64,000 bases of DNA from an uncultured cyanobacterium (GTDB lineage: Bacteria; Cyanobacteriota; Cyanobacteriia; Cyanobacteriales; Cyanobacteriaceae), in the NCBI GenBank assembly GCA_963710605.1, contig CAVQBA010000006.1:1-64000 (forward strand), read 5' to 3'. A program made the position numbers and the translations under genes. The first letter of the stretch is position 1. Every line of letters starts with the position of its first letter. Positions 38,821 to 52,401 of this stretch are shown one piece after another. The notes under the pieces were generated by a model, which had not been told where the DNA came from, searched no databases, and saw only the letters and a program-made list of their open reading frames with translations.

Positions 38821-41800
38821 ATGAAAAGCCTATTTTTAGAAAGATTAAATAGTCCACAACGTCCCGTGTTAGTATTGGATGGGGCAATGGGAACAAATTT
38901 ACAAGTGCAAAACCTTACCGCTGAAGACTTTGGCGGAGCAGAATATGAAGGTTGTAACGAATATTTAGTCCATACTAAACCAGAAGCCGTAGAAATTGTC
39001 CATAGAGGCTTTCTGGAGGCGGGAGCGGATGTCATTGAAACCGATACCTTTGGTGGCACACCCTTAGTCTTAGCCGAATATGATTTAGCAGACAAATCTT
39101 ACTACCTCAATAAAACTGCCGCCGAGTTAGCCAAAAAAGTAGCTCAAGAATTCTCCACACCCGAAAAACCCCGTTTCGTGGCAGGAAGTATAGGACCTGG
39201 TACTAAATTACCAACTTTAGGACATATTGATTACGATCGTCTTAAAGATGCTTACGTAACTCAAGTAAACGGCTTATACGACGGTGGTGTAGATTTATTC
39301 TTAGTGGAAACCTGTCAAGATGTTTTACAAATAAAAGCCGTCTTAAACGCCATCGAAGAAGTATTTACGGAGAAAGGAAAAAGACTCCCTTTGATGGTAT
39401 CAGTAACCATAGAAGACTTTGGCACAATGTTAGTCGGTACAGAAATTAACGCCGTTGTTGCTATCCTCGAACCTTATCCGATCGATATATTAGGCTTAAA
39501 CTGTGCGACTGGTCCGGATTTGATGAAGCCTCATATCAAATATCTCAGTGAAAATTCTCCCTTCATCGTTTCTTGTGTACCCAATGCAGGTTTACCTGAA
39601 AACATTGGCGGACAAGCCCACTACAAATTAACACCGATCGAATTGAAAATGGCATTGATGCACTTCGTTGAAGACTTAGGAGTGCAAATTATTGGTGGTT
39701 GTTGCGGTACAGACCAGCTCATATCAAAGCTTTAGCCGAGATTACGACAACTCTAACCCCCAAGCAAAGAGAATATAATTATGAGCCTTCAGCCGCTTCA
39801 ATTTACAGCACAACTACTTATACTCAAGACAATTCTTTCCTCATTATTGGTGAAAGATTAAATGCCAGTGGTTCAAAAAAATGTCGTACTCTTCTTAATG
39901 AAGAAGATTGGGATGGTTTAATTTCTCTAGCAAAAAATCAAGTCAAAGAAGGTGCGCACGTCTTAGATGTCAACGTCGATTATGTTGGGCGTGATGGTGT
40001 CAAAGATATGCACGAGTTAGCTTCTCGTTTGGTCAACAACGTTACCTTACCCTTGATGTTAGATTCCACTGAATGGCAAAAAATGGAAGCAGGATTAAAA
40101 GTAGCTGGTGGTAAATGTATCCTTAATTCTACTAACTATGAAGACGGGGAAGAGAGGTTTTTTAAAGTACTTCAATTAGCCAAAAAATACGGTGCAGGAG
40201 TCGTGATCGGGACGATCGATGAGGAGGGAATGGCTCGGACAGCCGAACAGAAATTTGCGATCGCTAAACGTGCCTATGAGGATGCGAAAAAATTTGGTCT
40301 TCCTCCTTATGAATTATTTTATGATCCTTTAGCACTACCTATTTCAACTGGGATTGAAGAAGATCGAGAAAACGGAAAAGCAACAGTAGAAGCAATCAAA
40401 CGTATTCGAGAAGAGTTACCTGAATGTCATATTCTCCTTGGTATTTCTAATATCTCTTTTGGTTTGAATCCTGCCTCTCGTCAAGTATTGAATTCGATCT
40501 TTTTACATGAATGTATGCAAGTAGGTTTGGATGGAGCGATCGTTTCACCTAATAAAATATTACCATTAGCGAAGATTGATGAAGAGCCGTTAAAAGTATG
40601 TCTTGATTTGATTTACGATCGACGAGAATTCAATGATAATATTTGTAGTTATGATCCCCTAATTAAATTAACTACTTTATACGAAGGTAAAACCACTAAA
40701 AGTAACAAGAAAAATGTAGCCGATTTACCGATCGAAGAAAGACTCAAACAACATATCATTGAAGGAGAAAGAATAGGTTTAGAAGATGCTTTAAATATCG
40801 CCTTAGAAAGTTATCCACCATTAGATGTGATCAATATCTATTTATTAGACGGCATGAAAGTTGTTGGTGAATTATTTGGTAACGGACAAATGCAATTACC
40901 TTTTGTTTTACAGTCAGCCCAAACTATGAAAGCGGCGGTGGCTTATCTCGAACCTTTTATGGATAAAGACGAAGCCGATGATAGCGGAAAAGGTAAGTTT
41001 TTAATCGCTACAGTTAAAGGAGATGTCCACGATATTGGTAAAAATTTAGTCGATATTATTCTCTCTAATAATGGCTATAAAGTTATTAATTTAGGTATCA
41101 AACAACCTGTCGAAAATATTCTTAAAGCCTACCATGAACATCAACCAGATTGTATTGCCATGAGTGGTTTATTAGTCAAATCTACTGCTTTTATGAAAGA
41201 TAACCTAGATACCTTTAACAAAGAAGGTATAAACGTTCCCGTCATTCTAGGTGGTGCGGCACTTACTCCCAAATTTGTTCATGGTGATTGTCAAGATGTT
41301 TATCAAGGTAAGGTAGTTTACGGTAAAGATGCTTTTGCTGATTTGAATTTTATGGACAAATTAATGCCCGCTAAAAAATCAGATCAATGGAATGATGTTA
41401 GTGGTTTTTTAGGCGAATTTTTAGAGCAAAATGAATACTTTGCAGGTAGAGCTAAAAATGAAGAAAATGGCGATAATAATAAAGAAGAAAAAGAAGTAAA
41501 AAATAAAGAACCAGAAGTAATAGATACTCGCCGTAGTGAAGCTGTAGATATTAATATAAAACGTCCAACACCTCCTTTTTGGGGTACTAAAATATTATCA
41601 CCAGAAGATTTTGATTTAGACGAACTTTTTTGGTATTTAGACTTACAAGCACTTTTTGCAGGGCAATGGCAATTTCGTAAACCTCAAGGGCAACCAAGAG
41701 AAGAATATAACGAATTTTTAGCTGAAAAAGTACACCCTATTTTAGATGAGTGGAAAGCTAAAGTTAAAGCCGAAAATCTATTACATCCCACATTAATTTA

Positions 41801-42371
41801 TGGTTATTTTCCTTGTCAATCTGAAGGAAATACTTTGTATATTTATAACCCCGAAAAACCAGAGGATAAAGAGATTGTTGCTCAATTTGACTTCCCCCGT
41901 CAAAAATCGGGTAAACGTTTGTGTATAGCCGACTTTTTTGCCCCTACAGACTCAGATACGATCGATGTCTTCCCGATGCAAGCCGTAACGGTGGGAGAAG
42001 TTGCGACTGAATATGCCCAAAAACTATTTGCGGCTGATGAATATACCAATTACCTTTATTATCACGGTATGGCGGTACAAACAGCCGAAGCGATGGCAGA
42101 ATGGTGTCATGCAAGGATAAGACGAGAGTTAGGTTATGGTGATTCTGAGCCCGATAATATTCGGGAAATGTTCCAACAACGCTATCAAGGCTCACGTTAT
42201 AGTTTTGGTTATCCTGCTTGTCCGAATATGCTAGATCAGTATATACAATTAGATTTATTGGATACTAAACGCATTGGTATGTATATGGATGAGAGTGAGC
42301 AAATATATCCCGAGCAATCGACAAGTGCTATTATTTGTTATCATCCCGTAGCGAAATATTTTAGTGCTTAA
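38821..42371 (+). CDS. metH: Cobalamin-dependent methionine synthase, split by a 1-bp frameshift at about 39711
   Basis: DGAMGT, LNCATGP, GGCCGT in ORF1; pterin domain, [13 protein letters not shown] and [10 protein letters not shown] in ORF2; adding one A in GGTAC-A-GACCA restores GGCCGTRPAHI. Confidence 0.93.
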
Positions 42372-42384
42372 ATTTAGTGTAAAG

Positions 42385-42410
42385 AGTGAGCTTTTTGCTC
42401 ACTTTGTTAT
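42385..42410 (+). terminator. Hairpin after metH
   Basis: AGTGAGC-TTTTT-GCTCACT followed by a T-rich tract. Confidence 0.5.
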
Positions 42411-42413
42411 TTT

Positions 42414-42695
42414 ATGAATATACAATTTGAATGGGATGAAAATAAGCGTTACAGCAATATTCGTAAACATGGAATCGATTTTATTGATGCTTACAAAATA
42501 TTTGATTACGATACAGTAATAATAGAAGACGATCGTTTTAATTATGGCGAACAAAGACTTATCGCTATTGGTTTATTAAAGGGTACAATAATCGTCGTTG
42601 TTTACACCGAAAAAGAAAATAGTATTAGAATAATATCAGCACGAAAAGGGACAAAAAATGAACAACAAATCTACTTCCAAGAAATCTATGACTGA
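42414..42695 (+). CDS. brnT: BrnT-family toxin
   Basis: FEWDENKR.SNIRKHGIDF, YGEQR, RIISARK. Confidence 0.92.
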   Translation: MNIQFEWDENKRYSNIRKHGIDFIDAYKIFDYDTVIIEDDRFNYGEQRLIAIGLLKGTIIVVVYTEKENSIRIISARKGTKNEQQIYFQEIYD

Positions 42696-42930
42696 TTGGG
42701 AAAGATTAGATTCTATGACTGATGAAGATATAGACTTTTCCGATTGCCCTGAAATTACACCTGAAATGACAAAAAGTAAAACTATTAGACGTGGTTTAAA
42801 AGATTCTTCACACAAACAGCTACTAACTTTGTATTTAGATGAGGAAATAGTAACTTGGTATCAAAAAAATAAAGAATCTCATCAAGTAGAAATTAATAAT
42901 TTATTAAAAGATTATATTAAAAATCATTAA
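42658..42930 (+). CDS. brnA: BrnA-family antitoxin
   Basis: TDWERLDSMTDEDIDFSDCPE, TLYLDEEIVTWY, INNLLKDY. Confidence 0.88.
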   Translation: MNNKSTSKKSMTDWERLDSMTDEDIDFSDCPEITPEMTKSKTIRRGLKDSSHKQLLTLYLDEEIVTWYQKNKESHQVEINNLLKDYIKNH

Positions 42931-42964
42931 TCTTGATTATCAAAGTAGTCGATCGTTTTTAAAA

Positions 42965-43081
42965 AATACTTTATTTGTTCCTCATACAGAAGAAGAAACT
43001 CATCTTCTGGCATCACTAATTGAGTTTGTTGGGGTTTTAGTCGAGTCTTATGAAGATAAAAATATTTTTGAGTTGATGTAA
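42965..43081 (+). pseudogene. Internally deleted HigA-like antitoxin remnant
   Basis: Start-less frame NTLFVPHTEEE-THLLASLIEFVGVLVESYED; the middle segment of the family appears missing. Confidence 0.55.
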
Positions 43082-43203
43082 GTTGAGTCTAAAACGATCG
43101 TCTATTATAATTTTGAGTGCGAAAAAATTTTACTGCTTAAGGTTTTTTTGGTCTTGCTCACTCTATAATTAGCTTAACTAAAATATGGCATTAATAGAAC
43201 ATT

Positions 43204-44514
43204 ATGAGAATAACAAAAATTTCTATAGATGGATTATTTGGGATTTTTAACCATGAAATTCGTCTAAATGTGGAAGAAAGGATAACTATTATTCATGGTG
43301 CTAATGGTGTAGGGAAAACAATTATTCTTACAATGCTCAATGATTTTTTTCATTCTCGTTATTCCATTTTTAGAAAAACACCATTTGAAAAATTTGTAAT
43401 TTATTTTGATAACGCTCATAATATTGAAATTGTAAAAAAGAATCATATTAACGACAAAAAAACGACAAGTCATAGGTATGATATCAAATTCTTATTAAAA
43501 GAAAATGATTTAGTTATTAAAGACTTTATTCCTAGAATAGAAGATAATGAAGAAAAAATAGAAGATTATGATTCTCAAATTTCTTGGTATAGTCAGATAA
43601 TAAGACGGAAAATATCTATGGATATAAATGAAATAGAAGAAGACTCAAATAAAAATGATGATGATATCTGTGAATGGTTAGAGCAAATAACAAATAATAT
43701 TAATATCCACTTAATAAATTCTCAAAGATTAATCAATATAGAAAAAATCAATAAAAAGAAGAAATCGTACTCTACTGTTTCTAATTATTCAGAAAAATTA
43801 GCTAACTTAATGGATCGAAAATTTACTGAATATGGTTCTATTTCACAATCTTTAGAAAGAACTTTTCCATCGAGAGTTTTACAATTGGTACAAGTAGGAA
43901 ACACTGATTTACAAAGAGAAAATCTATCTGAACAACTAAATCATCTGCAAAAACAGAGAAATCGCTTAATAAATGTTGGTTTGTTGAACAAAGAAGAAGA
44001 TAGCGATTTTAATATACAGTCTAATACCATTGATAATACCGATGAAAGCACAAAAATGTTTTTATCTGTATATGTTGAAGATGTAGAAAAAAAGTTAAAT
44101 GTATTTAAAGATATAGCTGATAAAATAGAATTGTTAAAAAAAATTATTGATAAAAAATTTGCTTATTCTTCTAAACAAATTAATTTTGACAAAGAAAGGG
44201 GTTTTATTTTTACAACGAATAAAGATTTATCTTCTCCTTCAGAAAATGAAAATAAGAAAATTTCGCCGACAGATTTATCATCAGGAGAACAGCACGAATT
44301 AATCATGCTTTATGATTTATTATTTAATGTAAAACCTAATTCTTTAGTCTTAATTGACGAACCCGAATTATCCCTTCATGTAAGTTGGCTAGTCGATTTT
44401 TTAACTGATTTAGAAAGTATAATTAAAATTGCCGATTTAGATATTTTAATGGCGACTCATTCACCAGATTTGATAAACGATCGCTGGGATTTAACGGTTG
44501 AATTAAAGAAATAG
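43204..44514 (+). CDS. ABC/AAA_21-type ATPase, PARIS AriA-like
   Basis: Walker A GANGVGKT, signature LSSGEQ, Walker B LVLIDEPE, ATHSP; 4 nt upstream of the DUF4435 gene. Confidence 0.8.
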   Translation: MRITKISIDGLFGIFNHEIRLNVEERITIIHGANGVGKTIILTMLNDFFHSRYSIFRKTPFEKFVIYFDNAHNIEIVKKNHINDKKTTSHRYDIKFLLKENDLVIKDFIPRIEDNEEKIEDYDSQISWYSQIIRRKISMDINEIEEDSNKNDDDICEWLEQITNNINIHLINSQRLINIEKINKKKKSYSTVSNYSEKLANLMDRKFTEYGSISQSLERTFPSRVLQLVQVGNTDLQRENLSEQLNHLQKQRNRLINVGLLNKEEDSDFNIQSNTIDNTDESTKMFLSVYVEDVEKKLNVFKDIADKIELLKKIIDKKFAYSSKQINFDKERGFIFTTNKDLSSPSENENKKISPTDLSSGEQHELIMLYDLLFNVKPNSLVLIDEPELSLHVSWLVDFLTDLESIIKIADLDILMATHSPDLINDRWDLTVELKK

Positions 44515-44518
44515 AATA

Positions 44519-45376
44519 ATGCGAGAATATCTAACAGTCGATCGTATTGCTAACACTATCCGACAACAAAAAACAAATTTTCAAGGTAGTTTTATATTAG
44601 TCGAGGGTGATTCTGATAAAAAAGTATATCAAAATTTTGTTGACCAATTAAATTGTCGTTTTGAAATCTGTAAAGGAAAACCATCTAGTAAACAAAGAGT
44701 AATTCAAGTATTAGATATTTTAAATAACGATAATATACAAGGAATAATAGGTATCGTTGATGCTGATTTCGATCGTTTAGAAAATACTCAATATAACCAC
44801 AATAATTTATTTTTAACGGATTATCATGATTTGGAAATTATGTTAATTCGATCGCCAGCTTTAAATAAATTACTTCAAGAATTTGCCTCAGAAGATAAGC
44901 TTAATAAATTAAAATTAGATGTTAGACAAGTTTTATTAAATTTAAGTTGTGATTTGGGTTATTTACGTTGGATTTCTAGAGAAGATAACTTGAATCTCAG
45001 TTTTAATGATTTGAAGTACCAAAATTTTTTAGATACAAAAAAATTAATTGTTGATTGTAAAAAATTAATTAAAACAATTATAGATAAAACTCAAAACTAT
45101 TCGATTGTTCAACAAGATTTACTAGTGAAAATTAAGAATAAAAAAGATAAGCTTCATTATAAAGAGCAGATATGTTGTGGTCATGACTTAATTAATATTT
45201 TATCAATTTTGTTATGTAAAAAAATTGGCTCTAATAATACAAATCAAGTTAACAAAGAGAATCTAGAACGTAGTTTAAGATTAGCTTATGAAAGTATCTA
45301 TTTTCAGCAAACTAATCTTTATCTTCAGGTAATTAAATGGCAAGATCAGAATCACATTACTATGTTTGTGAAATAA
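44519..45376 (+). CDS. DUF4435 TOPRIM-like protein, PARIS AriB-like
   Basis: ILVEGDSD, GIVDADFD (TOPRIM E and DxD), TDYHDLE, CGHDL. Confidence 0.8.
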   Translation: MREYLTVDRIANTIRQQKTNFQGSFILVEGDSDKKVYQNFVDQLNCRFEICKGKPSSKQRVIQVLDILNNDNIQGIIGIVDADFDRLENTQYNHNNLFLTDYHDLEIMLIRSPALNKLLQEFASEDKLNKLKLDVRQVLLNLSCDLGYLRWISREDNLNLSFNDLKYQNFLDTKKLIVDCKKLIKTIIDKTQNYSIVQQDLLVKIKNKKDKLHYKEQICCGHDLINILSILLCKKIGSNNTNQVNKENLERSLRLAYESIYFQQTNLYLQVIKWQDQNHITMFVK

Positions 45377-45479
45377 GTAATTATCATAGTTTATGTCACC
45401 TTATCTATCTTTGAAATTTAGAATCATCAAGAGTAAATAAAGAAAAGAGTATAAACAATTAGTCAGTCTTCTATTTTAG

Positions 45480-45625
45480 AGTCACAAGCTTATACTTGAT
45501 GAACCTATTACGATCGCAGGTAAAAATAGATATGAGACTAAACTATACTTAGAAAAAGATGAAAAGCTAGAAGAATTATAATGAACAATCATTACAACAT
45601 GGTAATTCAATAAAGTGAAGAAGAT
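45480..45625 (+). pseudogene. Degenerate hicA 3' end + hicB 5' end remnant
   Basis: EPITIAGKNRYETKLYLEKD (HicA-like tail), TAATG overlap, then MNNHYNMVIQ*SEEDN (HicB IQWSEEDN with W changed to stop). Confidence 0.55.
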
Positions 45626-45633
45626 AATATTAT

Positions 45634-46662
45634 TTATTCATAAAAAGAAGGTAATTGCTTAATTAACTCGTACTCTATCTCCTCTAATTTGGGAACTATA
45701 CCAATTTCTGGATCTTGCAAAATTTGGTTTTTAAATTCAGTTAAATAATCAAGAATATTTTTTCTTAAAATAGGACGAGAATCCGCTACCATATTCTTAT
45801 AATCCCATACATCCCAAGCTACAAAACCGATCGCTAATAAAGGATCTATTAATTTAGCTGTAGTTGATACAGCAACGGAAGTTCCACCTTTAACTGCTAA
45901 TTTACTTCCTGCTTTGAGTGCGATATTACTAAATAATTTGGCACCGATAACTGCTCCAACGATCGTAGTTTCGGTTAACAATGAACTACCTAAACTTTGT
46001 AGTGATAAGCTAGATTTACTATTTCCTGTATTATAAATTAATTGAGCAAGTTCTCCTAAATGGCTATCCCAATCACGATCGTCAATTTTGTAATCGTTTT
46101 TAATATCTGCGAAAACTAAACTAATAGAATTACCATATATTTTACCAGTTCTTTCAATTATTTTTTTAAGATCTTTTTGAGCTGATTTAGTAAATACTAA
46201 TTCCTGAAATTTATCATAAAACTTTCTGGTCAATCTTTTAGCTATTATTTCACTTGAATTGAGATTTTTTTCATCTTCTTTTCTTAATAGTTTTAAGCGT
46301 TTGTCCAATTTGAAACCTACCCAAGAAATTACGCCTCCATATTCGATCGATTTTTGATTGAAAAAACTAAAGTACCAATCTAAAAAATCTTGATCTACAT
46401 TCACCATCAATTCATCAATATAGTCATCTAATTCTTCTGTTGCGAATTCCTCCGCCACAAGAAGACTGTCTTTAATTTTATCAGTTAATGATTTATCTAT
46501 CTTTGCCCAGTCATAATTTTTATCATCTAAAAAAGCTATTTTGTTATTGTTAATTATGTCCGCTACAGCAGGTTTTAAAAATAACAAATGATTATTAAAA
46601 ACTAAAATAATAGTAAGTAATAAGATAGTTAAGTTTTTGGTTAATCGATCGATAATATTCAT
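45634..46662 (-). CDS. Uncharacterised exported protein, paralog B of a tandem pair
   Basis: Signal-like N-terminus (PAVA-D); FLDWYFSFFNQKSIEY and AWDVWD shared with the upstream gene. Confidence 0.75.
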   Translation of the reverse strand: MNIIDRLTKNLTILLLTIILVFNNHLLFLKPAVADIINNNKIAFLDDKNYDWAKIDKSLTDKIKDSLLVAEEFATEELDDYIDELMVNVDQDFLDWYFSFFNQKSIEYGGVISWVGFKLDKRLKLLRKEDEKNLNSSEIIAKRLTRKFYDKFQELVFTKSAQKDLKKIIERTGKIYGNSISLVFADIKNDYKIDDRDWDSHLGELAQLIYNTGNSKSSLSLQSLGSSLLTETTIVGAVIGAKLFSNIALKAGSKLAVKGGTSVAVSTTAKLIDPLLAIGFVAWDVWDYKNMVADSRPILRKNILDYLTEFKNQILQDPEIGIVPKLEEIEYELIKQLPSFYE

Positions 46663-46717
46663 AAAAAATAATTAAATTAAAGATTTTAAAAATAGTTAAG
46701 CATGGTAAAAGTTTTAA

Positions 46718-47896
46718 TTAAATCAAACTTGAAACAATATTTTCCTGAATTCGATCGATAATAATTATAATTCCTGTCTCAGGATTATTAAGTAACGAAT
46801 CTTTTACTTCTTCTAAATAACCAATCAAATTTTCTTTTAAAATCGGTTTTTCAATTTGAGCGGTATGATTAATATCCCAAATATCCCATAAAATAATACC
46901 AACTCCTACACTTGCATCTAAAAAAGTTGAGCCAATTTTACCGGCTAAAACTCCACCTGTTTTAGTTGCCACTTTTGCCCCCGCTTTTCCTGCTAATTTA
47001 GCCACTACTTTACTGCTGACTGTCGGTATAAGTTTGACGATTAAAGGTTTAACAGCTACATAAGCACCACCACCGACAAAAACTTTTAAAGGTGTATTAG
47101 AAATGTTCCCTTCTGTATTGTAAATACTAACGGCAATATCATTAAGATAATTATCCCAATCTGTTTGAGGAATTTGATAGTTGATGGCAATGTCACTAAT
47201 ATTTGTTTCAACTTGCTTAAGATAATATCTAACTATTTGATTGGTTATTCTTTCTAATTGCAATTGAGCTATTTGGGGGCGTAATACTCTTTTACTAAAT
47301 TCTAACTGAAAATCTTGAGTAATTGACTCGGCTATTTGCTCATTTATACCTTTATTATTCAGTTTAAATAGCTTAAAACTTCCAGCTTTCAAGGCATTAA
47401 AAAAACCTTTATATTCTATTTGTTTTTGATTAAAATAACCAAAGTACCAATCTAAAAAATTAGGATCGATTCTAGTAGCTAAATCATCAACCCAAATTTG
47501 TAATTGCTCGTCTGCATATTCATTAGTATTTTTATAAGCTAAATCTAAACTATCTTTAATTGCAACATCAATTTTATTCCACTCAATAACTGTTTTTTCA
47601 ATCGTAATTTCTTTATTAGAAGTTGGTTTGTTACTAAAAGATTGAGCAATAATTCCTTGCCCGATTAAGGGAATAATAACAATAATAATTACTAATACCC
47701 ATAGATAAGGTGCAAAAGATTTTAACAAATTAGCGATCGAATTTAACAAGCGACTCCAAGAATTTATTTTTTGGGTAACATCGTTATCAGTCTTAGCTTC
47801 TAATGTTTTATTTACCTGCTTATCTTCTTTCTTGTCTTTCTCAATACTATTATCTTCTAACGTCTGTTTTTTTGGTTCGGTGTTTTCTTGAGTCAT
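46718..47896 (-). CDS. Uncharacterised membrane-anchored protein, paralog A of a tandem pair
   Basis: TM YLWVLVIIIVIIPLIG; FLDWYFGYFNQKQIEY, LWDIWD. Confidence 0.75.
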   Translation of the reverse strand: MTQENTEPKKQTLEDNSIEKDKKEDKQVNKTLEAKTDNDVTQKINSWSRLLNSIANLLKSFAPYLWVLVIIIVIIPLIGQGIIAQSFSNKPTSNKEITIEKTVIEWNKIDVAIKDSLDLAYKNTNEYADEQLQIWVDDLATRIDPNFLDWYFGYFNQKQIEYKGFFNALKAGSFKLFKLNNKGINEQIAESITQDFQLEFSKRVLRPQIAQLQLERITNQIVRYYLKQVETNISDIAINYQIPQTDWDNYLNDIAVSIYNTEGNISNTPLKVFVGGGAYVAVKPLIVKLIPTVSSKVVAKLAGKAGAKVATKTGGVLAGKIGSTFLDASVGVGIILWDIWDINHTAQIEKPILKENLIGYLEEVKDSLLNNPETGIIIIIDRIQENIVSSLI

Positions 47897-47986
47897 CTAT
47901 CTATGGGTTAGTTAGTGAAATACTTTAATCAGTTTAATATTATTGTTTAGTCTAATCTTTTAAGCATAAATGAATAACAAAGTACT

Positions 47987-48007
47987 GTAGTAATGACTTT
48001 AGTCATT
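47987..48007. repeat. GTAG-headed REP-like hairpin
   Basis: GTAG-T-AATGACT-TT-AGTCATT; same type as 16817-16836 with a compensatory stem change. Confidence 0.55.
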
Positions 48008-48136
48008 GGATATGACTGAGTATATGTATATCTTGATTTTATTATAAGTCATCAAACAAATTTAATATCACTATCTAAAGCTCGATTTAATCTAAAATTA
48101 TCTTGAGGTAAAAAAACAAATAGTCGATCACTAAAA

Positions 48137-48856
48137 ATGCTAACAAAAATAGATTCAAATATTTGGATTGCACAACAACAATTAAAATACTTAGGGTTAG
48201 AAGTCGGGACAAAAATGACTATCATTCGTCTAGAGAATGATGAATTAGTAGTTATTTCTCCTATCCAAATTAATGATACTATTCAAACTCAATTGAATGA
48301 AATTGGATTAGTAAAACATATTATTGCACCTAATTTATTTCATTATTTATTTGTTTCTGATTGGAAAAAACTTTTTCCTAATGCGATGGTTTGGGCAAGT
48401 CCAGATTTGAAAGCTAAAAAACCAAATATATCGATCGATAAAAACCTTAATTATCAAGGTGGTAAATTTAATAATAGTCTTGAATATCTTTTTTTTGATG
48501 GATTTAAAACAACTACTTTTAACGGTTTTGAATTATTAAATGAATTTGTTTTTTTTCATTCTTTAACTAAGACTCTTATATTGACAGACACAGCTTTTAA
48601 TATTGATGATAGTTTTTCGCCTTTTATACAATTTGTAGCGAGAATTACTGGTGATTTTAATCATCTTAAACCATCGCTTTTAGAAAAAATTGCTACTAGC
48701 GATAAACAGAAAGTCAAAACTTCAGTGACTAAAATTCTAGAATGGGATTTTGAAAGGGTAATTATGGCACATGGCTCAATTATTGAATCAAATGGAAAAC
48801 AAAAGTTTAAACAAGGATATGAGCAGTTTCTTAATTGTACTTTGAATAATATGTAG
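48137..48856 (+). CDS. DUF4336 family protein
   Basis: GTKMTIIRL, SPI, IIAPNLFHYLF, EFVFFH..TLILTD, WDFERVIMAHG. Confidence 0.8.
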   Translation: MLTKIDSNIWIAQQQLKYLGLEVGTKMTIIRLENDELVVISPIQINDTIQTQLNEIGLVKHIIAPNLFHYLFVSDWKKLFPNAMVWASPDLKAKKPNISIDKNLNYQGGKFNNSLEYLFFDGFKTTTFNGFELLNEFVFFHSLTKTLILTDTAFNIDDSFSPFIQFVARITGDFNHLKPSLLEKIATSDKQKVKTSVTKILEWDFERVIMAHGSIIESNGKQKFKQGYEQFLNCTLNNM

Positions 48857-49059
48857 TTAATTAGTAACTATAAAATTAGATAGATTAGATTTGCAATAAT
48901 TTTTTAGCAGACATACACAAAATGTTTAATTAGTCAAGCAATATATGATGAGTAAGTTTATTGATCTGATCGATCGTCTGCCCTTATTCTGCTTCGCACG
49001 ATCGTCTGTTATTATCATGAAAGTGAAATATTTTAGTGTTAAAACAAGAACAAGACAAA

Positions 49060-49725
49060 ATGACAACTTATTTAGTGACAGGGGCAAATAGAGGTATAGG
49101 TTTAGAATATTGTCGTCAACTAAAACAACTTGGAAATCAAGTAATTGCAGTTTGTCGAAGCACTTCAGAAGAATTAGATAGTTTGGGAGTAACAGTTATA
49201 TCAGGCATAGAAATTACTGAGTATCAAACGATCGCTGATTTGGTTGTAAAATTAGATGGTGAAACAATTGATGTTTTAATTAACAACGCTGGAATAGTTA
49301 ATGCTGATAGCTTCGATTATTTAAATTTTGATAGTATTCGTCAGCAATTTGAAATAAATGCGATCGGTACACTCAAGATAACTAAAGCATTATTACCTAA
49401 CCTCCCAAAAGGTGGAAAAGTAATTATTATGACTAGTCGTATGGGTTCAATCGAAGATAATACATCTGGTGGTTATTATGGCTATCGTCTGAGCAAAGCC
49501 GCAGTTTCTATGGCAGGTAAATGTTTATCAATCGATCTCAAACCCGAAGAGATTGCTGTGGCGATTCTTCATCCTGGATTAGTTAAAACTCGGATGACAG
49601 GCTTTACTGATAATGGTATTACAACAGAACAATCTGTCACAGGATTGTTATCGAGAATTGATGAACTTACTTTGGAAAATACAGGAACATTTTGGCATTC
49701 TAATGGAGAAGTTTTGCCTTGGTAA
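49060..49725 (+). CDS. Short-chain dehydrogenase/reductase (CsgA-like)
   Basis: TGANRGIG, NNAG, YGYRLSK, LHPGLVKT, GEVLPW. Confidence 0.9.
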   Translation: MTTYLVTGANRGIGLEYCRQLKQLGNQVIAVCRSTSEELDSLGVTVISGIEITEYQTIADLVVKLDGETIDVLINNAGIVNADSFDYLNFDSIRQQFEINAIGTLKITKALLPNLPKGGKVIIMTSRMGSIEDNTSGGYYGYRLSKAAVSMAGKCLSIDLKPEEIAVAILHPGLVKTRMTGFTDNGITTEQSVTGLLSRIDELTLENTGTFWHSNGEVLPW

Positions 49726-49937
49726 TAAGGGAAGGGAAAATTAACACATTTATGTTTGACTCAGTTGTCATGAATATAAATAAATAATTGAGCGTAGTGT
49801 GATAATGTCTCTAAAGAACGAATATATCGATCGCTAAAACAATACCAGAGTTTAGGTACTTGTTGGTTGTCTTCTAAATTTCGATTGATAAGAAGTAAAT
49901 TGCATTGATAAGAAGTAACAAGTTAATCAAAACCTGT

Positions 49938-49976
49938 GATGAATTAGTTCGGCTACGCAATTATTCGGTGAGAATT
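49938..49976 (-). repeat. Short dispersed repeat family A, copy 5
   Basis: Reverse complement ATTCTCACCGAATAATTGC-GTAGCCGAACT-AATTCATC. Confidence 0.7.
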
Positions 49977-49980
49977 ATAG

Positions 49981-50574
49981 TTATTTAAACGGTTGCCCCC
50001 ACCATTGCCATGATTCTTTATTAAAAGGCGATCGCCATTTTAAGATTAATTCTTTTTCTAACTTTTGGCGTAACTTTCTAGATTCTGGAACACTCCACCA
50101 AAAAGCACTTCTAATCAAAACAGGTAAATCGTACTTTCGATGTAATTCTAAATAGTGTTGAATATAGTTTTTACAATCGTGATTAATCCATCTTTGCCCG
50201 GGCGATCGTTTTGTTTCTCCTACGTATAATAATAAAGAAGAATGAGTATCTAAAATAAAGTATAAACAACTTTCACTTAAGTTGTAATTAGGTAAATCAT
50301 AAAACTGATCGCTATGAGTTTCTTGTTCAAAAGGATTAAATAATTCTACTTCGCAAATAGATGTTTTTTCACTGATTAAATCACCTTGTTGTATCTGATT
50401 ATTTATTTGAGCTTGTTGATAATTGTAAATACTTTTTTTCCAGTTTTCTAAAAAACTTTTACTCATAGCAATATCAGGAGTAGTTGTTTTTTTTGATAAC
50501 TGATAAGTAGCTGAGGGTTCAAACAAGCTCAACTGTTTTGGTGAAGATGAAGGACGATAATCAGAATAATTCAA
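49981..50574 (-). CDS. GIY-YIG nuclease family protein
   Basis: CLYFILD..LLYVGET..RW..H, LEKELILKWRSPFN. Confidence 0.75.
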   Translation of the reverse strand: MNYSDYRPSSSPKQLSLFEPSATYQLSKKTTTPDIAMSKSFLENWKKSIYNYQQAQINNQIQQGDLISEKTSICEVELFNPFEQETHSDQFYDLPNYNLSESCLYFILDTHSSLLLYVGETKRSPGQRWINHDCKNYIQHYLELHRKYDLPVLIRSAFWWSVPESRKLRQKLEKELILKWRSPFNKESWQWWGQPFK

Positions 50575-50617
50575 TGGTTTTGAGCAAATAAATAATTTCG
50601 ATTCAAGCGATAAGTCT

Positions 50618-50640
50618 GTAGGGGTTTATGGCATAAACCC
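50618..50640. repeat. GTAG-headed REP-like hairpin
   Basis: GTAG-GGGTTTATG-G-CATAAACCC. Confidence 0.6.
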
Positions 50641-50748
50641 AAAATTAAATTTGTAGTTTTGTTTGTCAGGTTTCGCACTTTATTTTATATATTACTTATA
50701 TCCTAACGTTTTCTAAGCTTCAATCCAACCGACAATTTACGATCGCCA

Positions 50749-52401
50749 TTAATACCCGATCGCACTTCCATCACCACGAGGATCTGTACCACCATATCTT
50801 ACATCAGTGTCTCGATCGATTATAATCATCCCAGCGTGTCCCATCACATCAGTAAAATTAGGTTGTATATTAAGTTGATGCCCTCGTCTTTCTAACTCAT
50901 TTAAAACAGATTGCTCGACTCTTCCTTCTATTTTAAGTTCATTTGTTTCCGAGCCAAGATTTCGCCCTTGAATCCAACGAGGAGATTCGATCGCATCTTG
51001 TGCTGAAAAACCAAAATCAACTACACGAGTAACCAGTGCCGCTTGGGTTTGAGGTTGCCCGTCTCCGCCCATCGTGCCGTAAACTAAATAAGGCTTACTT
51101 TGTTTTAATAACATCGCTGGATTAAGAGTATGATAAGTACGCTTGTATGGTTCTAGATAATTAACGTGATTTGAATCAAGGGAAAAAAACTTACCTCGAT
51201 TTTGAAGCAATACACCCGTATTTTTAGCCACAATACCAGAGCCAAAAGCATCGGCAATACTATGAATATAAGATACAGCGTTACCATCTTTATCCACCAC
51301 ACCCATCCAAGCAGTATCAGATTCGAGACTAGTTGTTGAATCTGGAAATTGAGTAACCTGCATCTGGATTTGTTGAGCGAGATTGAGATTATGAGTCTTT
51401 GATAATAATTGAGTTAGGGGAATATTAACAAAATCAGGATCACTAAGCCAACGATTACGATCGTTAAATGCTAATTTAATTGCTTCGACGATTAGATGAT
51501 AATAATCTGCTGTTCCTTCTCCTAACTCCTTCACGTTAAAATTATTAAGAATACTTAAAATTTGTAGCGATGCCATTCCTTGAGTCGGAGGTGGTAGATT
51601 ATAGGCTTGATAACCACGATAATCGACAGAGATTGGCTCAACCCATTTAGCTTGATGCCTAGCAAAATCATCGAAAGTTAGTAATCCATCGTTAGATTGC
51701 AAATCTTGAATAATTCTTTTAGCTGTTTCTCCTTGATAAAATTCATCTGCACCATACTCAGCAATTCTAGTTAATGTTTGGGCTAAATCTGTTTGATATA
51801 GTATTTCTCCATATTGATAAGGCTTACCGTTAGGTTTAAAAAAAATCGAGTTAAAACCTTGAAAACGTTTTAGATTACCAAATTCTCGATCGAGTGAATT
51901 AATGTTTCTTTCTAGCCATTGATGTTGATGAGTAGAAATAGGAAAACCATTTTCGGCATATTCAATCGCAGGAGTGAGTAAATCTTGCCACTTACTCGTA
52001 CCATTCATTTGCTCTTGAGAATAGTGATAAGCCTCTTGCCAACCAGCTACTGCACCCGGTACTGTATTTGCCGCTAAATAACCTCGATCGGGTATTGTAT
52101 CGTACCCTTTAGAGCGATAAAAGTTGCTGGTGACGTTTTTTCCTGCCGCCCCCGTTGATTCTAAACCCTTTATTTGTTTTGTCTTAGCACTGTATATCAA
52201 CCAAAAATTATCGCCACCAATTGTCCCCATTTGTGGATACACTACCGAAAGTGCGGTCGAACCTGCGATCGTTGCTTCTACAGCATTACAGCCTTGATTT
52301 AAAGCAGTTAGAGCCACTTGTGAAGCTAAATAGTTAGGAGATGAAACCATCCCTTTTGTTGACATTACTGTGGTATTCGATCTACCAAAAAACTCATTCA
52401 T
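50749..52401 (-). CDS. Gamma-glutamyltransferase-family Ntn hydrolase, oxamate amidohydrolase (HpxW)-like
   Basis: VVYPQMGTIGGDNFWLI, autocleavage Thr in SDTAWMGVVD, HTLNP, GTMGGDGQPQT, DPRGDG; purine-cluster context. Confidence 0.75.
   Translation of the reverse strand: MNEFFGRSNTTVMSTKGMVSSPNYLASQVALTALNQGCNAVEATIAGSTALSVVYPQMGTIGGDNFWLIYSAKTKQIKGLESTGAAGKNVTSNFYRSKGYDTIPDRGYLAANTVPGAVAGWQEAYHYSQEQMNGTSKWQDLLTPAIEYAENGFPISTHQHQWLERNINSLDREFGNLKRFQGFNSIFFKPNGKPYQYGEILYQTDLAQTLTRIAEYGADEFYQGETAKRIIQDLQSNDGLLTFDDFARHQAKWVEPISVDYRGYQAYNLPPPTQGMASLQILSILNNFNVKELGEGTADYYHLIVEAIKLAFNDRNRWLSDPDFVNIPLTQLLSKTHNLNLAQQIQMQVTQFPDSTTSLESDTAWMGVVDKDGNAVSYIHSIADAFGSGIVAKNTGVLLQNRGKFFSLDSNHVNYLEPYKRTYHTLNPAMLLKQSKPYLVYGTMGGDGQPQTQAALVTRVVDFGFSAQDAIESPRWIQGRNLGSETNELKIEGRVEQSVLNELERRGHQLNIQPNFTDVMGHAGMIIIDRDTDVRYGGTDPRGDGSAIGY

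Follow-up and report, generated by a model that had tools for sequence, protein, structure and literature searches.

A tandem gene pair from a cyanobacterial genomic island encodes paralogs of a new family of predicted membrane scaffolds with an unproven role in defence

Two adjacent genes, here termed A and B, lie on the minus strand of a 64,000-nucleotide stretch of DNA from an uncultured cyanobacterium (contig CAVQBA010000006.1 of assembly GCA_963710605.1, positions 1 to 64,000; hereafter the window). Their predicted products point to a new membrane-scaffold family whose role in defence is unproven. The reading that we tentatively favour, and hold at slightly less than an even chance, is that the pair is a mobile, two-gene version of a stalk-like scaffold bound to the membrane outside the cytoplasm and acting independently of nucleotides. 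Protection of the envelope against insults is probably the use to which the pair is put; that these include phage entry or lysis is a guess from genomic context.

An earlier note on this DNA, made from the sequence alone, had described two co-oriented genes 55 bp apart with mature parts that align along their whole length, and this description proved accurate. Both open reading frames (ORFs) are present on the minus strand (Table 1), and BLASTP aligns A 105-391 with B 51-337 at 31% identity and 55% positives over 293 columns (E 2e-44). Judged by their sequences, A and B are paralogs, their similarity being far above chance. All motifs quoted in the note were found in the two translations: FLDWYFGYFNQKQIEY of A is aligned with FLDWYFSFFNQKSIEY of B, DWDNYL..IYNT with DWDSHL..IYNT, AGKAGAKVATKTGG with ALKAGSKLAVKGGT, WDIWD with WDVWD, and PILKENLIGYL...NPETGI with PILRKNILDYL...DPEIGI. 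The transmembrane (TM) anchor attributed to A corresponds to a strongly hydrophobic segment that begins near residue 65 (19-residue Kyte-Doolittle mean of 2.8), preceded by a charged tail of 62 residues, and the signal-peptide-like leader attributed to B consists of a basic stretch, a hydrophobic core and the putative cleavage site AVA/D. The note had seen no catalytic motif, and no catalytic family was found for A or B in Pfam, NCBIfam or PADLOC. Since the spacer between the genes carries no terminator-like site, we infer that A and B are co-transcribed. Promoter-like sites number 12 as against 17.5 expected, and the three terminator-like sites all fall within the genes, so no transcript boundaries can be drawn. 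No tRNA was detected in positions 39000-52000 of the window and no Rfam family in 42000-51000.

Neither protein reaches a Pfam or NCBIfam model, the best rows being chance-level and sub-threshold, and no family among 5027 PADLOC models (PADLOC-DB 2.0.0) matches A or B at E <= 0.1. Two candidates on B 154-188, ParE_toxin (E 0.03) and RelE_StbE (E 0.19), fall short of their curated cut-offs. The Walker A likeness of GGVLAGKI in A was likewise rejected, as the stretch lacks the S/T and sits in a Lys-rich helix. A word-based search with B returned 23 proteins, every one unnamed or "hypothetical", whereas a profile search of 1.84 billion protein representatives yielded 368 at E <= 0.001 and 128 at E <= 1e-30. 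The source names of the members read "hypothetical protein" in all cases but one, a "predicted hydrocarbon binding protein", and two homologues (L038 and P0016) led only to unnamed "hypothetical protein" clusters, in some of which Pseudomonadota is the commonest phylum. Relatives are encoded in 113 stretches of a set with one genome per species, and the 79 genome loci considered here derive from the best 80 of these. The named carriers of these loci, among them Nostocales, Microcystis and Oscillatoriales, are cyanobacteria, save one bin labelled Acetobacteraceae. In a sample spread evenly over the phylum, 39 of 401 genomes carry the family (match at E <= 1e-10), with a presence of 19/19 in one genus and 22/25 in one family, and of 0/225 across 12 families. 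The family is real and mostly cyanobacterial, patchy across the phylum and fixed in some clades. None of 112 pattern matches on viral contigs is a relative, and plasmids contribute one distant member only, a single copy on a megaplasmid of Microvirga. This full-length member of 356 aa (L140:5851-6921, plus strand; profile E 1e-80) resides on a 1.34-Mb plasmid of Microvirga ossetica, the record of which bears no annotated feature at that place. In the literature covered, no account was found of the family or of GTPase-less bacterial stalk proteins; in the sources searched, the family is unnamed and uncharacterised.

The organization of A and B as a pair is conserved. Sixty-five of the 79 loci hold one family gene and 12 an intact tandem pair. 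Two further loci were excluded from the tree of 91 proteins, namely L064, where the one family gene is split, and L014 of Hormoscilla, where two B-like fragments, 107 and 172 aa long, come after an intact A-type gene (L014:5686-7636, plus strand), an arrangement that looks like a decayed pair. In the tree, the 13 B-type proteins form a single clade (support of 100 in the Shimodaira-Hasegawa-like approximate likelihood-ratio test, SH-aLRT), and the 13 pair-A proteins form one clade nested within the singletons, together with L061 and L081. The latter two are classed as singletons, although in L061 the contig end is too near for a B gene to be held. Five sister pairs are identical in the A and B subtrees (window/L003, L010/L013, L005/L007, L009/L016 and L006/L011). 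A scan of metagenomes added 11 further B-type genes, eight with A directly upstream and three at or near a contig start, so that every B-type gene having enough upstream DNA (21/21) is preceded directly by an A-type gene, which bears out, for the B-type genes, the pairing of homologs that the earlier note had proposed to look for. The spacing in the other pair loci ranges from an overlap to 82 bp, and clustering of all ORFs disclosed no third gene common to the 22 pair loci and the neighbours in the window. A and B form a self-contained conserved two-gene module. As an outcome that would refute its proposal, the note had named homologs that are mostly singletons in housekeeping contexts. This outcome applies to 65 of the 79 loci, which goes half-way towards refuting the proposal. 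There is mild evidence against B having arisen recently by duplication inside the pair-A clade, since keeping pair-A and pair-B together costs 35 units of log-likelihood (p-AU 0.024). In this approximately unbiased (AU) test, pair-A, pair-B, L061 and L081 were held together as a group named after tree inspection, 12 rows were dropped (eight near-identical Microcystis sequences and four truncated ORFs), and long branches are involved.

Singletons are predicted to be membrane-anchored and are syntenic within orders. For example, the Nostocales singleton follows chlL-DUF5331-chlN and precedes an alpha/beta hydrolase and a DUF3318 gene, the singleton of Lyngbya-like genomes is located between mutL and a Transglut_core2/TPR gene, and that of Microcystis near uppS and a Rieske gene. 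The flanks of the pair loci, in contrast, mostly differ from locus to locus; related flanks are shared within three groups (L006/L011/L086, the DISARM loci L005/L010/L013, and L092/L125 beside rplL). Nine of ten other pair genomes carry the pair as their sole family genes, as does the genome of the window, which is 85% complete, and in two pair-bearing Nostocales neither a family gene nor a remnant was found at the syntenic site after chlN. In this small sample, the distribution fits the replacement of a one-gene function by a two-gene module. At L010, BLASTP groups with the A/B family a 132-aa ORF (L010:8805-9203, plus strand) that lies downstream of the GmrSD-type gene; this ORF may represent a third, partial family copy.

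The positive-inside rule and the signal-peptidase motif serve as guides to membrane topology. A TM segment (19-mer with a Kyte-Doolittle mean >= 2.18) lies about 80-100 residues before FLDWYF in 77 of 78 A-type and singleton proteins, the single one without it being a truncated ORF. Comparison of the 15 residues on either side revealed the N side to be more positive in 70/78 and the C side in 1/78. All 13 B-type proteins display the form of a signal peptide, with a basic n-region and a hydrophobic core, followed in most by an AxA-like site. By these sequence rules, A would be inserted N-in/C-out through a single TM helix and B would be exported by Sec, with its leader cleaved after AVA34, so that the bundles of both proteins should lie outside the cytoplasm, in the periplasm next to the cytoplasmic membrane or in the thylakoid lumen.

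AlphaFold2 (AF2) models built on the family alignment are all-helical for both proteins, with a predicted local distance difference test (pLDDT) of 80 and a predicted template-modelling score (pTM) of 0.71 for B, and values of 77 and 0.65 for A. Both contain long helices of 30-47 residues and an ill-defined insert before the last long helix; the conserved region, helical throughout, begins about 20-40 residues past the TM or signal segment. The insert of A opens with a beta-hairpin and closes with WDIWD; between them, an amphipathic helix rich in Lys, Gly and Ala has a hydrophobic segment on either side. Its Eisenberg hydrophobicity is 0.4-0.56 and its moment 0.3-0.36, and K283, K308, K312, G314, W337, D338 and W340 are invariant. 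Low pLDDT is found at 321-337 in A, and values below 50 at 213-238 and 251-271 in B. The hydrophobic / Lys-Gly-Ala-rich / hydrophobic insert before the last long helix of A and B is a candidate membrane binder. In the dynamin superfamily, the membrane-binding insert (paddle, PH domain or L4) is placed between the last two stalk helices, and in Mx proteins loop L4 is positioned before the last stalk helix. The flexible Lys-rich insert of A and B would then lie where the Mx stalk (MxB 4x0r/4whj, MxA 3szr) has L4. However, identity to Mx is only 6-11%, Mx proteins are eukaryotic, cytoplasmic and equipped with a GTPase, and any common descent is conjectural. Scored by VIA against the B model, dynamin-family stalks reach 8.0-9.9, compared with 5.9 for YaxB, 5.6 for AhlB, 5.5 for ClyA, 5.5 for SmhB and 5.1 for MakA. 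Likeness to a dynamin stalk is therefore the best available lead from the models, with no demonstrated relationship.

These comparisons also bear on the suggestion of the earlier note that the long helical bundles with their hydrophobic hairpin recall bipartite pore-forming toxins or the stalk of dynamin-like proteins. Its structural part stood, in that a helical bundle with a hydrophobic, Lys-rich insert is predicted, whereas the toxin part fared badly. A two-component alpha-pore-forming toxin of the ClyA/XaxAB kind, directed against competitors or grazers, would account for a tandem arrangement of two helical proteins, each about 340-390 aa long and with hydrophobic segments, for the predicted export of one partner, as in XaxAB/YaxAB and ClyA, and for the beta-hairpin at 255-269 beside a hydrophobic helix in the A model. 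ClyA chains do head the Foldseek list, yet insignificantly (E 0.14-0.7, template-modelling scores 0.11-0.19), they score lower by VIA than dynamin-family stalks on the same B model, and no ClyA-family chain appears in the top 50 for A. Neither A nor B matches a ClyA-type toxin family of Pfam or NCBIfam at E <= 1. Furthermore, the components of these toxins are released in soluble form, whereas only B bears a predicted cleavable leader, and A, like 77/78 A-type and singleton proteins, appears to be anchored in the producer's own membrane. Most relatives are, moreover, singletons stably syntenic with housekeeping genes next to chlN, mutL or uppS. A toxin is accordingly an improbable explanation.

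A heteromeric assembly of A and B, as proposed in the earlier note, is supported in silico. The predicted A-B complex scores 0.77 (three runs, 0.76-0.83), as compared with 0.54 for the best control; the mark used in this test is reached by 58/80 solved complexes and by 2/110 mismatched pairs. At least 59% of contacts recur between the runs, with a partner pLDDT of at least 64. In the predicted interface, A 195-219 runs along B 298-319, with additional contributions from A 146 and 150 (FLDWYF) and from B 280-290 (WDVWD).

In their general organization, A and B resemble paired bacterial dynamin-like proteins (DLPs) such as Campylobacter DynA/DynB (5owv), LeoABC and Nostoc BDLP, as well as the two-gene Dynamins operon: adjacent paralogous genes, a predicted long helical stalk-like bundle, a candidate membrane-binding insert and a predicted side-by-side heterotypic assembly. 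Several differences exist. Dynamins are cytoplasmic, whereas A and B are predicted to reside outside the cytoplasm. A and B lack a GTPase, with no match to Dynamin_N, MMR_HSR1 or a P-loop family at E <= 1 in Pfam, and show no detectable sequence similarity to dynamins in Pfam or a PDB profile; nor do they match LeoA/LeoBC in PADLOC. Their bundles span about 290 residues, in contrast to bacterial DLPs of 600-700 aa. According to the respective sources, most bacterial DLP genes are paired in operons (PMC6104087), and Bacillus subtilis DynA protects the membrane and delays phage lysis (PMC12998192, 10.1101/2025.03.27.645684). DynA may thus serve as a model for a membrane-binding stalk protein that protects against phage without attacking it, although it is a two-headed GTPase on the cytoplasmic side.

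The genomic surroundings of the pair have a bearing on its use. The copy in the window lies, together with the defence system PARIS, in an island of 6.8 kb. At L005, it is embedded in a class-1 DISARM operon on a single strand (DrmD-DrmMI-[A-B]-DrmA-DrmB-DrmC), with gaps of 54 and 32 bp around the pair. At L010 and L013, it is located between DrmMI and DrmA, along with a GmrSD-type gene, PemK or PIN genes and an AAA_35 ATPase, and at L013 it begins 31 bp past the DrmMI gene. In both of the latter loci, a toxin gene is inserted between the two ORFs into which DrmMI is broken (PemK in L010:3-2460, PIN in L013:49-4403). Elsewhere, the pair adjoins a toxin-deaminase and SUKH immunity gene (L006, L011 and L086) or PIN/MazE (L007), or has a BnzB-like gene nearby (L090). 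At L004, a 239-aa ORF two genes from the pair (L004:8363-9082, plus strand) aligns with Cas12k (E 1.8e-97) over no more than its first ~200 residues and may be the remnant of a CRISPR-associated transposon. At L009, L016, L087, L092 and L125, the pair is found among ordinary housekeeping genes.

The DISARM and PARIS contexts might be taken to mean that A and B are accessory subunits of PARIS here, or of DISARM elsewhere, rather than an independent module. B and AriB are convergent and 257 bp apart, and the pair starts shortly after DrmMI at L005 and L013. However, AriA/AriB occur in 0/22 other pair loci, the adjacency being confined to the window, DISARM occurs in 3/22, and no third family is shared. 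Because the pair and PARIS are oriented tail to tail, they cannot share a transcript. We consider an accessory role very improbable, the least likely of the explanations weighed here; PARIS is context and lies outside the A/B module.

A dedicated anti-phage system of the envelope, in which an A-B lattice on the outer membrane face of the cell's inner membrane blocks genome entry or seals phage lesions and travels as cargo of defence islands, draws on the same contexts: the PARIS island, the three DISARM embeddings, the Cas12k fragment, the BnzB-like gene and the toxin-deaminase/SUKH loci. Pfam domains of defence, toxin-antitoxin (TA) or mobile genetic element (MGE) type, in categories picked after data inspection, were present in 25/82 neighbour proteins of pairs (10/12 loci) and in 12/115 of singletons (8/17 loci). 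A precedent is provided by the two-gene Dynamins operon, which, according to its source, mediates phage defence, adjoins defence genes in 60% of cases and loses its activity upon mutation of the GTPase P-loop (10.1101/2022.05.11.491447); some A/B copies likewise reside in defence islands. In contrast, PADLOC matches among neighbours (E <= 1e-12) were found at 4/14 further pair loci, or 8/18 with the three DISARM loci and the window, as against 10/21 singleton loci, or 8/21 when RsmB, HEAT and nuclease look-alikes are left aside, so that enrichment of pairs beside defence genes is absent at the locus level. The three DISARM loci were scanned at E <= 1e-5, their matches being far stronger than 1e-12. 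Since cyanobacterial genomes are dense in defence genes, the association rests on the DISARM embedding and the PARIS island and not on a rate. For the defence reading suggested in the earlier note, support comes from context (PARIS here, three DISARM-embedded pairs elsewhere), with no enrichment over singletons by PADLOC. A dedicated anti-phage role is further weakened by the five pairs in housekeeping surroundings, by the lack of members on viral contigs and of PADLOC model matches, by the apparent replacement of a housekeeping-context singleton, and by A and B having no evident sensor or enzyme. It is rather unlikely in our view, and marginally less likely again is the more specific idea that a GTPase-less, stalk-like two-part lattice outside the cytoplasm would be a new anti-phage barrier of the cyanobacterial envelope, carried as PARIS/DISARM cargo and related as descendant or ancestor to a membrane scaffold encoded by one housekeeping gene.

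The favoured reading of a mobile extracytoplasmic scaffold would proceed from the predicted topology as follows. The two bundles would pack side by side as an A-B hetero-oligomer, with the FLDWYF and WDxWD regions in the interface. Both proteins would bind the membrane via the hydrophobic, Lys/Gly/Ala-rich insert before the last long helix, and together, without the need for a nucleotide, they would form a scaffold on the outside that shapes the membrane or keeps it stable. The pair would represent a self-contained, horizontally mobile version of a function fulfilled by one anchored protein in most carriers. It appears mobile because the island is absent from two relatives and low in GC, and because flanks differ between pair loci.

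Several points weigh against this reading. Topology, fold, membrane binding and complex are all predictions, and both models are least confident in the paddle regions. The earlier note had proposed a Foldseek search for ClyA, XaxAB, colicin and BDLP folds; it disclosed no match in PDB at E <= 0.001, and the same holds for BFVD. PDB sequences compared with a profile of 84 family members gave a best E of only 0.29. With regard to the complex, the control that keeps B and replaces A still scores 0.54, and as this is the highest control, B seems to dock readily on helical proteins. Replacement is called into question by the co-occurrence of pair and singleton in Lyngbya sp. PCC 8106 (L009, L055) and in genome G418. 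At the level of the phylum, the absence of singletons from pair genomes is expected anyway, because only 39/401 genomes carry the family, and the Nostocales case comprises two genomes.

Table 1. Positions in the window of the A/B pair, its parts and the surrounding island.
Feature	Positions	Strand	Description
Gene A	46718-47896	minus	392 aa; ORF list
Parts of gene A			Predicted charged cytoplasmic tail 1-62, TM ~63-86, short linker, helical bundle ~105-392; from hydropathy, flank charges and AF2
Gene B	45634-46662	minus	342 aa; ORF list
Parts of gene B			Predicted Sec-type signal peptide 1-34 (AVA/D), same helical bundle ~50-342; from signal-peptide form and AF2
A-B spacer	46663-46717	minus	55 bp; no terminator-like site inside
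Paddle-like insert of A	46877-47134	minus	Residues ~255-340
Paddle-like insert of B	45814-46026	minus	Residues ~213-283, terminating in WDVWD; from pLDDT and hydropathy
Low-GC variable island	42931-49732		~6.8 kb; PARIS, A/B, DUF4336 gene, SDR gene
PARIS	43204-45376	plus	AriA 43204-44514 (PADLOC 1.1e-21), AriB 44519-45376 (PADLOC 2.2e-24); Pfam AAA_15, DUF4435

The island that holds the pair has a GC content of 26.5-29.2% in 43001-49000, in contrast to 32-41% in the flanks. It is regarded as an insertion because two genomes of the same family as that of the window are devoid of it at the same site: in G198, metH-brnTA is followed about 290 bp on by a match to window 49733-49898, and in G405 the same match lies about 216 bp past metH. 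The BrnT/BrnA toxin-antitoxin pair (42414-42930, plus strand, overlapping ORFs), which directly follows metH in the window, is located outside the inserted island, as it is also present after metH in G198. The metH gene itself (38821-42371, plus strand) is found in two overlapping frames, ORF 38821-39735 with the homocysteine S-methyltransferase domain and ORF 39699-42371 with the pterin-binding, B12-binding and activation domains, which suggests a frameshift, a sequencing error or a true split near 39700-39735. Just beyond the island, 38 bp at 49939-49976 recur at two places (90-95% identity) on contig C4 of the same genome and may be a short dispersed repeat. A 197-aa ORF at 49981-50574 (minus strand) has no Pfam family, and its DNA is 69-83% identical in many related genomes; it is an unnamed conserved cyanobacterial gene.

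Although fixed in some groups of cyanobacteria, the family has neither a name nor a Pfam model, and it has no relative of solved structure. If the likeness to a stalk is true, the self-assembling, membrane-binding part of dynamins would work here on the opposite face of the membrane and free of a GTPase, with implications for the ways in which cyanobacteria protect or shape envelope and thylakoids. Found in DISARM operons and beside PARIS, the mobile two-gene form is a candidate for defence at the level of the envelope, a layer for which few systems are known. Should the likeness be that of a generic bundle only, the pair would still illustrate clearly how a function of one gene is taken over by a two-gene version that moves horizontally.

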